From the NCBI GenBank assembly GCA_044892525.1, contig CM097885.1, positions 17,486,001 through 17,550,000 on the forward strand: DNA of 64,000 nucleotides. Reading direction: 5' to 3'. The position numbers were made by a program, and so were the translations under genes. Origin of the DNA: Schmidtea polychroa. Lineage: Eukaryota. The notes below the pieces were generated by a model. It searched no databases. It saw only the letters and a list, made by a program, of their open reading frames with translations, and was not told the origin of the DNA. Below, piece after piece: positions 46,374 through 47,780 of this stretch (its first letter is position 1; every line of letters starts with the position of its first letter).

Positions 46374-47780
46374 ATGTATATAATTATAGAAATGGATAAG
46401 CGACAACGAGAAGAATTCAGAGAAATTGTTGAACAAATCAGAAAGTCCACCACAATTCAAATACACAACCATGTAACGTGTGGAATATGCAAGAGCTTAT
46501 TAAGAGAACCTCACCAAACCAGATGTGGATGCAGAATGTGCAGAGAATGCGTAGAGGAGATAATAAAGAAGGGACCACAATGGTGCCCAGTATGCAAAGA
46601 AACAATGATAACAAGTTTGGGAGATACAAACGAAGATAAAGCAGCTGTAAAAGATATGTTGAATGCAAACCTAGGATGTAAAAACACCCCATGTAATTGG
46701 CGAGGAGTGATATGGGAAGTGAGGCAACATACGGAGCAGTGTGAGTATAAAATCAGTCAATGCAAACGTTGCCAAGAAGAGATTAAAGTCAATGAAGAAG
46801 CAGAACATCAAAGTCGATGCGAAGAAAGACTAGAGAAATGCGAGTATTGCGGAGAAAACGACACCTGGAAGAAACTAATCAGTCAACATCACAACATACA
46901 AGAGGAGAAAGTGTGCGCAGAATTCAGAGGAGAATGCCCCAACAAATGCGATAAACCCGGAGTAATAAAACTCGCTCAACATCTAAAAGAGTGTGAAAGA
47001 AAAAAGATAACGTGTGTGCTAGGAAAATGGGGATGTCAGAAACAATTACACCGAGGGGAATTACCCCAACATCTAGCAGAAAACGTATCAACACACGCGG
47101 AAATATGGTCAACGGTATTACAGGAAAACGAAAGGAAAACCGAAAACTTAGATAGAGAAATAGTCTCGCTAAAAGCGTTGGTAAAAGAACTATTGGAAGA
47201 AAAGGAAGCATTTGAAGAGGCGAGAACAAGTACAAAGATACAGACAGACCTAGTAGAAACTAGCAACATTATGGTGAAAGAACTACATCAAAAAGTAAGC
47301 GAATTAAACCTCAACGAATTAATACCTACGGCTCCGTACATATGGAAAATAACGGGAGTAAAAGAGAAGATGCAGAGAGCGAGAAATGGAAAGGATACAA
47401 CATTACTAAGTCCAGCATTCCACTCATGGAAAAACGGGTATAAAATGAAAATGAAAGCATACCCCAATGGGGATGGAAGTGCATACGGAACGCATTTCTC
47501 AGTATTCTTCTTGATGTGCAAAGGGCCATACGACGAGTTAATAGAATGGCCATTCAAAGCAAAAATAGACCTCGCAATGATGAACTATCAAAGTATACAC
47601 GAACAGAGTTTCCATACAGCGGGAAACCTCGTATGTTACCAAAGGCCCTTGGAAGAAGAAGGACCAGCAACCGGAGCACCAAATTTCATCCTACAGCGGA
47701 AAGTAGAAGACATGACGAGAAACGACACTATATACATAAAAATAGCGGTGAGGCGAGACGGGAAGAGTAGGACTGAGTAG
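46374..47780 (+). CDS. Full-length intronless TRAF-family protein (RING, TRAF zinc fingers, coiled coil, MATH); likely start ATG 46392
   Basis: CGICKSLLREPHQTRCGCRMCRECV..CPVC; CKNTPCNW..HTEQC zinc fingers; YIWKI..LLSPAF..GYKM..YPNGDGSAYGTHFSVFF..KGPYDELIEWPF. Confidence 0.93.
   Translation: MYIIIEMDKRQREEFREIVEQIRKSTTIQIHNHVTCGICKSLLREPHQTRCGCRMCRECVEEIIKKGPQWCPVCKETMITSLGDTNEDKAAVKDMLNANLGCKNTPCNWRGVIWEVRQHTEQCEYKISQCKRCQEEIKVNEEAEHQSRCEERLEKCEYCGENDTWKKLISQHHNIQEEKVCAEFRGECPNKCDKPGVIKLAQHLKECERKKITCVLGKWGCQKQLHRGELPQHLAENVSTHAEIWSTVLQENERKTENLDREIVSLKALVKELLEEKEAFEEARTSTKIQTDLVETSNIMVKELHQKVSELNLNELIPTAPYIWKITGVKEKMQRARNGKDTTLLSPAFHSWKNGYKMKMKAYPNGDGSAYGTHFSVFFLMCKGPYDELIEWPFKAKIDLAMMNYQSIHEQSFHTAGNLVCYQRPLEEEGPATGAPNFILQRKVEDMTRNDTIYIKIAVRRDGKSRTE

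Follow-up and report, generated by a model that had tools for sequence, protein, structure and literature searches.

A retroelement in the genome of Schmidtea polychroa carries a complete, intronless TRAF gene which, judging from sequence comparisons, was very probably captured and has been maintained as a functional protein. The gene was found in a stretch of 64,000 nucleotides (here termed the window) and comprises a RING, five zinc fingers, a coiled coil and a MATH domain, all situated between the long terminal repeats (LTRs) of the element. This bears out a preliminary description of the same DNA, which had proposed an intact intronless TRAF with all four modules inside a retroelement.

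A TRAF gene within an env-bearing element of the Burro type

Self-comparison of the window identified two direct repeats of 4,174 bp each that differ by 1 mismatch, have TG...CA termini and are bounded on either side by a CTAT target-site duplication (Table 1). The element measures 30,559 bp and its insertion is very recent. All long ORFs inside it lie on the + strand, in the order IAP-type RING ORF, a Gag-to-ankyrin frame of ~4,800 codons and five accessory ORFs, the second of which is the TRAF gene. The long frame (31343-45778) consists of 1,509 + 3,301 codons with one TGA at 35870-35872, compared to ~4,900-5,100 aa for Burro-type polyproteins. In its 3,251-aa second ORF, Env (PF24664) occupies aa 494-833 and the protease follows at 1023, i.e. 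Env is in frame ahead of the protease, while an Ank_2 match (Pfam, E 1e-16) succeeds the integrase. Additionally, below-cut-off Pfam matches to Bcl-2 (E 0.037) and ubiquitin (E 0.01-0.02) were obtained at the expected places; the BCL2-like stretch returned no PDB match, and no dUTPase match was obtained in the element ORFs (Pfam). The TRAF-bearing element is an env-bearing Gypsy element of the Burro type, and it is filed as such rather than as one of Burro1-4 themselves because no BIR domain was found in any of the nine element ORFs scanned (9/9, Pfam), which contain an IAP-type RING only. Its nearest pol relatives were 18 mostly unnamed polyproteins (P0235-P0290) with a pol 45-52% identical to that of the element; most of these carry an in-frame Env ahead of the protease, and ankyrin repeats occur in two. 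The Burro-type layout is widespread in ENA/JGI contigs.

Table 1. Features of the element and its immediate borders (positions in the window)
Feature	Coordinates	Strand	Basis or remark
Inverted arms of enclosing repeat	23668-24447 and 55801-56580		
Left target-site duplication, CTAT	24448..24451	+	
5' LTR, 4,174 bp, TG...CA	24452..28625	+	self-comparison
254-codon ORF in 5' LTR	27325-28089	+	no Pfam family
Primer-binding-site-like 18-mer, 7 bases behind 5' LTR	28633..28650	+	
159-aa ORF, C-terminal IAP-type RING	29101..29580	+	cIAP1/2, XIAP RING match, E 1e-9
Gag	31898..35872	+	Retrotrans_gag, CCHC knuckles, weak ubiquitin-like match; frame open from 31343, closes at one in-frame TGA
Gag frame continued (first ATG 36023)	35873..45778	+	weak BCL2-like stretch, Env (Monjiviricetes fusion), protease, RT, RNase H, integrase, ankyrin repeats, C-terminal hydrophobic segment
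119-aa acidic helical accessory ORF (ORF119)	45947..46306	+	
85-bp AT-rich spacer with AATAAA and TGTA motifs, TAG 2 bases ahead of TRAF ATG	46307..46391	+	candidate 3' splice site
TRAF gene, 462 aa, intronless	46392..47780	+	earlier in-frame ATG 46374 probably unused
RING, aa 30-68, eight Cys ligands, CGC at 46524-46532	46479..46595	+	
Five TRAF-type zinc fingers, aa 96-235	46677..47096	+	
TRAF-N coiled-coil helix, aa 232-304	47085..47303	+	AlphaFold
MATH / TRAF-C domain, aa 316-453	47337..47750	+	
345-aa charged helical accessory ORF	48001..49038	+	no Pfam family
233-aa charged helical accessory ORF	49222..49923	+	no Pfam family
208-aa ORF: hydrophobic N-terminus, membrane segment near aa 104-122, PxQxS at aa 193	49979..50605	+	
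3' LTR, 4,174 bp	50837..55010	+	self-comparison
Right target-site duplication, CTAT	55011..55014	+	

A number of further features of the element were recorded. The 18-mer behind the 5' LTR may resemble a tRNA-Pro site; ahead of the 3' LTR (50780-50836) no clear polypurine tract was seen, two short GC-rich inverted repeats being present there instead. The 254-codon ORF occurs in both LTRs (second copy at 53710-54474) and lacks the A skew of the internal genes. The IAP-type RING protein without BIR sits 5' of gag and has silent sites that are less A-rich than those of gag/pol (p 0.03), and the long leader between this ORF and gag contains a tandem array of ~80-bp units (30157-30670). The TGA in the long frame is followed by C and lies outside the region on which contigs were mapped (see below); it may be a site of programmed readthrough or a defect of this particular copy. 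The region beyond the ankyrin repeats, with which the polyprotein ends (44570-45778), contains hydrophobic segments plus a short basic tail and resembles a membrane protein joined to pol.

The TRAF reading frame (46374-47780) is free of stops over 468 codons and has two candidate ATGs. Translation probably starts at 46392, since contigs of all four public sequencing runs (4/4) carry a 4-base insertion immediately behind the first ATG (at 46376) and since the related database proteins P0010, P0014 and P0094 start at a Met matching the second ATG; ATG 46374 was accordingly rejected as the start. The TAG listed in Table 1, which ends within an AT-rich tract ahead of ATG 46392, also speaks for this start, and residues are numbered here from it. 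In Pfam the ORF matched C3HC4 RING (E 1e-4) and MATH (E 2e-24), with no match to zf-TRAF, while in the PDB it matched the C-terminal domains of TRAF3/2/1/5/4 (E 2e-27 to 6e-18, with TRAF2/3 matches at E 1e-27 to 1e-25) and RING-zinc-finger pieces of TRAF6/5/2 (E 2e-14 to 2e-8). AlphaFold returned a RING, a finger array, a 73-residue helix and a MATH sandwich at a mean pLDDT of 83; the helix (pLDDT 90-95) aligns with the TRAF3 coil. All RING Zn ligands are present (C30,33,45,47,50,53,65,68), as are the five ligand sets of the fingers (C96 to H235), which align with fingers 1-2 of TRAF6/5 and with planarian TRAFs, and the RING-finger linker has two more residues than that of TRAF6 and seven fewer than that of TRAF2 (HMMER alignments). 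The MATH domain aligns over its length with TRAF2/3 and retains the YPNGDG, SVFF, WPF and GxP motifs. The positions of TRAF2's three serines read L-V-C, so binding may differ; the first of these serines is retained in several host-like planarian TRAFs.

The accessory ORFs are separated by AT-rich spacers of 55-220 bp; TGTA motifs occur in every spacer and AATAAA in most. In 5/7 internal ORFs the ATG is preceded, at a distance of 1-6 bases, by a TAG, versus 8% in spacers and 45/520 other ATGs, by a criterion that was set post hoc. The exceptions are ORF119, where TAAG is present, and pol, which does not form an independent ORF; the LTR ORF has TAG directly before its ATG. More generally, an AT-rich tract and an AG stand just ahead of the ATG in nearly every accessory ORF (29101, 45947, 46392, 48001, 49222, 49979, 27325). 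This operon-like layout suggests cis- or trans-spliced subgenomic RNAs, the simplest reading being spliced subgenomic RNAs, with spliced-leader trans-splicing, which is known in flatworms, as the alternative.

Descent, residence and upkeep of the TRAF gene

The best single-stretch match to the TRAF protein among 1.84 billion representatives was P0004 (36-37% identity, E 2e-84). In a FastTree phylogeny of 91 rows the query fell within a group of 20 rows, 16 of which have CGC in the RING. An IQ-TREE analysis of 37 chosen rows joined it with P0004, P0010, P0014 and P0094 in a clade supported at 100/99, lying in turn within a 19-row group (96/99) in which every named member comes from a planarian (four in all: Dendrocoelum TRAF-2, -4 and -5 and Dugesia japonica TRAF2-like A). 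The outgroup comprised 18 rows, 9 of them named (fish, shark, hemichordate, brachiopod, echinoderm, cnidarian and sponge); proteins of >640 aa, most rows without a RING motif and the long-branched P0119 were left out of the trees. A mixture model on 22 rows gave supports of 97 and 92, in a tree where long branches meet and attraction is possible. The trees do not separate a position of the element clade nested among the host-like TRAFs from one sister to them (AU p 0.27). The grouping with planarian TRAFs upholds the earlier proposal of a captured host gene, the named planarian proteins being taken as ordinary host genes from their balanced amino-acid make-up rather than from genomic context. 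The TRAF ORF is ~30% identical to the host-like planarian TRAFs and its EKRTQ share is 0.39, compared to 0.29-0.36 in 13 host-like rows. A long loop in finger 3 is common to the query and planarian TRAFs in alignment A1, which includes one outgroup row; the trait rests on that alignment, because a pattern search for the loop did not discriminate (16/19 clade rows and 27/131 others, mostly in other fingers). Furthermore, an unnamed 544-aa protein (P0001) with a CGC RING-like start, two MATH domains, A-rich codons and a very long branch is possibly the cargo of another element.

The preliminary description had also contrasted the CGC in the RING with a CGH in cellular TRAFs. The CGC is indeed there, but CGH is not general: a motif scan of 153 sequences found the motif in 96 (74 CGH and 22 CGC including the query) and none in 57, such that CGC occurs in 21/95 other proteins with a readable RING motif. 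These include Dendrocoelum lacteum TRAF-2, -4 and -5 and the TRAF3-like proteins of a starfish and a crinoid, and an element-specific change was thereby ruled out. The CGC is instead the state of the planarian TRAF clade, inherited from the donor. C4C4 RINGs exist, and CGC keeps a metal ligand.

At fourfold sites the TRAF gene has A 0.61/T 0.07, and gag and pol have A 0.56-0.57/T 0.10-0.11 (chi-square p 0.50 for TRAF versus gag+pol); DNA outside the element shows no such skew (A 0.37-0.39/T 0.35-0.37). Among the other accessory or LTR ORFs tested, 4/5 differ from gag+pol (p 0.03 or lower). Both the plus-strand A bias common to TRAF and gag/pol and the long residence previously read from it are thereby supported, and the case for long residence is clearer for TRAF, whose fourfold sites do not differ from those of gag+pol, than for the ORFs around it.

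Contigs of four public runs from 3 studies, the best of which may be the source of the window itself, were mapped on 45300-48400. They numbered 3697, 121, 1231 and 210, covered 30/30 bins in each run and ranged in likeness from 99+% down to under 90%; their summed depth was not taken as copy number. Contigs join the pol end to ORF119 and ORF119 to TRAF, and none covers pol to TRAF whole, so the linkage of pol and TRAF in other copies rests on overlapping pieces. The preliminary description had named two circumstances that would speak against a captured functional gene, namely a TRAF confined to this copy and a TRAF evolving neutrally. The gene proved to be multi-copy in all four runs, and its substitutions across copies were non-neutral in a rough dN/dS check: among the best-supported 40 of 709 substitution rows, 10/16 in TRAF were synonymous, where the observed mutation spectrum predicts 26.6% (p 0.003), with an omega of ~0.22 that is rough because it is based on these 40 rows. 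Within the same 40 rows, 5/7 substitutions in the pol end were synonymous, and several of the six listed TRAF replacements were conservative, three being R to K and one D to E. No indel within 46392-47780 occurred among the best-supported 12 of 52 rows. Purifying selection on the TRAF across copies is thus indicated.

The possibility that the TRAF is a mere passenger, i.e. captured sequence without function that is intact by luck or recency, would agree with the existence of broken relatives and of low-depth deletion forms, one of which lacks 45644-47928 (all of TRAF) in 2/4 runs. It is nonetheless very unlikely, given that the silent sites match those of gag/pol, that 462 codons are open and every ligand is retained at only 36% identity to the best match, and that the substitutions are skewed to silent (10/16 among the best 40 of 709 rows). 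A host retrocopy inserted into one copy only, or an assembly chimera, is an explanation to which we give almost no credence. No TRAF or MATH was found within the polyproteins of the 18 env-bearing pol relatives (0/18), where separate ORFs of those elements are not visible, as might be expected of a one-off insertion. Against this stand hundreds to thousands of contigs, 80-99% alike, across the gene and both flanks in 4/4 runs, the contigs that bridge pol end and ORF119 and ORF119 and TRAF, and a strand-skewed composition unlike host DNA; a single-copy insertion was therefore rejected.

Searches of other contig sets were also performed. Viral contigs scanned for TRAF gave 8 stretches, none confirmed, and none for pol; metagenome contigs gave 446 stretches with an element-like alignment, none confirmed, and 9 pol loci, none with a match to TRAF or another accessory ORF.

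Proposed role of the TRAF protein

Since this is a full TRAF with intact ligands, the most fitting reading of the protein is that of an adaptor and a scaffold for ubiquitin signalling. We propose that an ancestor of the Burro-type element took up a planarian TRAF2/3-like gene long ago, most likely as spliced mRNA, and that the element has since kept it as a working accessory gene. The protein would be translated from a processed subgenomic RNA, with the TAG before the ATG as putative 3' splice site, would trimerise via its coiled coil and MATH domain and would dock on cytoplasmic receptor or adaptor motifs, while the RING and fingers would feed ubiquitin signalling. Together with the IAP-type RING and the weak BCL2-like stretch it may constitute a cassette for the control of cell death, by which stem or germ cells that express the element would survive and the element would spread more readily. 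A pro-survival role for element-expressing cells is the reading towards which we lean, if only modestly. RNAi of host planarian TRAFs is lethal and increases cell death (PMC7586133), and the BIR-RING IAP of Burro1 is reported to protect stem cells from caspase-mediated apoptosis (Lee et al. 2026, as cited in PMC13465017).

A decoy or dominant-negative function was weighed against this role. The element TRAF would then join host trimers or fill receptor motifs without signalling itself, and so damp innate-immune or stress signalling pathways through which the element would be sensed. The ~30% identity to host-like planarian TRAFs, the changed serine stretch in the MATH groove and the long branch all fit such a function, and viruses commonly use captured genes to damp immune signalling. 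A pure decoy, however, needs only the coiled coil and MATH, whereas all RING and finger ligands are retained here and the N-terminal half likewise shows mostly silent changes (6/9 of those listed up to codon 209, among the best 40 of 709 rows); we consider the decoy unlikely, while still according it some weight.

The opposite role, that of a pro-apoptotic or egress factor, would have caspase-8-type death free Env-bearing particles. Fish iridoviruses encode TRAF-like proteins, as seen in the structural matches; ISKNV ORF111L is reported to bind TRADD and to induce caspase-8 apoptosis (PMC3352826), and the element does have an Env. An inherited element gains little by killing its stem or germ cells, and the IAP-type RING and BCL2-like cargo point to survival, as does the reported Burro1 IAP (PMC13465017); the pro-apoptotic role is accordingly rated as highly improbable.

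It was also considered that the element encodes a self-contained signalling module, in which the membrane protein with the PxQxS tail (49979-50605), the full TRAF and the IAP-type RING would act like the receptor-TRAF-cIAP node of TNF signalling, or like EBV LMP1, and would be expressed from a series of subgenomic RNAs produced by splicing or trans-splicing. We regard this as doubtful. The PxQxS of the 208-aa ORF is the only such motif in the nine ORFs of the element and constitutes a single short match in a P/Q/S/T-rich tail; the protein has no Pfam family, and all of its ESM Atlas leads were sub-0.9. The predicted complex of three TRAF domains with its tail (score 0.02, mark 0.34) speaks neither for nor against docking. 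Kim et al. 2019 (PMC6824462) report that SMEDWI-3 piRNAs bring about the degradation of numerous mRNAs for traf, ankyrin and E3-ligase proteins; we infer an overlap of these targets with Burro cargo domains. If the module is real, a substantial part of the 'expanded' planarian TRAF family would be element-borne, which would explain this SMEDWI-3 targeting, although the paper treats the targets as genuine genes.

Relation to known cargo, host TRAF counts and surroundings

TRAF cargo in Burro elements is not new, as PMC6431247 lists MATH_TRAF_C, BIR, BCL2-like and ankyrin domains and an in-frame Env for Burro/GYPSM1 and has already proposed interference with apoptosis and ubiquitination by these elements. 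The element described here shares with Burro/GYPSM1 (PMC6431247) its length of >30 kb, multi-kb LTRs, a Gag with CCHC knuckles, candidate (weakly matching) ubiquitin-like and BCL2-like stretches, Env in frame before protease, RT, RNase H and integrase, ankyrin repeats, a frame of ~4,800 codons, MATH/TRAF-C cargo and accessory ORFs. It differs from Burro/GYPSM1 in that no BIR was found and the long frame holds one in-frame TGA. The MATH_TRAF_C of Burro1 is part of the polyprotein, and that of an element of Dugesia tigrina lies in an upstream accessory ORF, for which the review leaves it unstated if a full-length TRAF is encoded (PMC6431247); here, a whole TRAF occupies its own ORF behind pol. 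A full-length, separate TRAF in a Burro-type element, maintained by selection, is therefore a variant of known cargo. A literature search returned no full-length RING-to-MATH TRAF downstream of pol, no descent from the planarian CGC clade and no selection on such a gene, matters which the primary Burro papers (Grohme 2018, Lee 2026) and their supplements may cover. Since the ORF stands alone, the TRAF can be tested by knock-down or expression apart from the polyprotein, and a separate TRAF kept by selection is a candidate for testing the meddling with apoptosis and ubiquitin proposed for Burro elements (PMC6431247).

With the TRAF2/3-like clade of cellular planarian TRAFs the protein shares domain order, a length of 450-490 aa, the CGC RING, five fingers and the finger-3 loop; unlike them, it is intronless within a retroelement, is only ~30% identical, is A-rich in its codons and has a changed MATH serine stretch. 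Like the B-IAP of Burro1 (Lee et al. 2026, as cited in PMC13465017), it is a host apoptosis regulator captured by a Burro element, and this element too has an IAP-type RING ORF, but a TRAF is predicted to act as an upstream adaptor rather than as a caspase inhibitor. The TRAFs of megalocytiviruses (ISKNV ORF111L) and giant viruses are likewise captured by selfish genomes, with structural matches to iridovirus models. Those genomes, in contrast, belong to DNA viruses; the two iridovirus models with names, at 296 and 206 aa, fall short of the element TRAF in length, identity is 19-23%, and ORF111L is reported to be pro-apoptotic (PMC3352826).

The preliminary description had further suggested that such elements inflate host TRAF counts, a suggestion that holds in part. 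Four or five database proteins (P0004, P0010, P0014, P0094 and P0154) look like element-borne copies entered as genes. P0010, P0014 and P0154 are 70-87% identical to one another where aligned and, with P0004 and P0094, look like decayed element copies; P0010, P0014, P0094 and P0154 are broken relatives with no MATH match, and the EKRTQ share was 0.41-0.49 in the four of the five proteins that were measured, i.e. A-codon-rich like the query. On the other hand, a further 14 clusters in this clade resemble host genes, and because of these the planarian TRAF expansion is not element cargo alone. It is plausible that element cargo explains part, and not all, of the reported expansion. Counts of 121 MATH domains (PMC6109357) and of 282 TRAF/MATH contigs, many of them partial (PMC7586133), are given in passages that draw no link to retroelements. 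Such counts may include element copies, which the A-rich-codon signature together with the clade can sort.

The element itself sits 4 bases inside one arm of a ~2.3-kb repeat element with a TAA run and inverted arms of 780 bp (99%). This inverted-arm element interrupts a 196-codon ORF (23091-23681) that has no Pfam match and that by eye resembles a Penelope-type GIY-YIG end. At the start of the window (1-7923) there is a large foldback whose arms (1-3585 and 4280-7923) are about 96% complementary.
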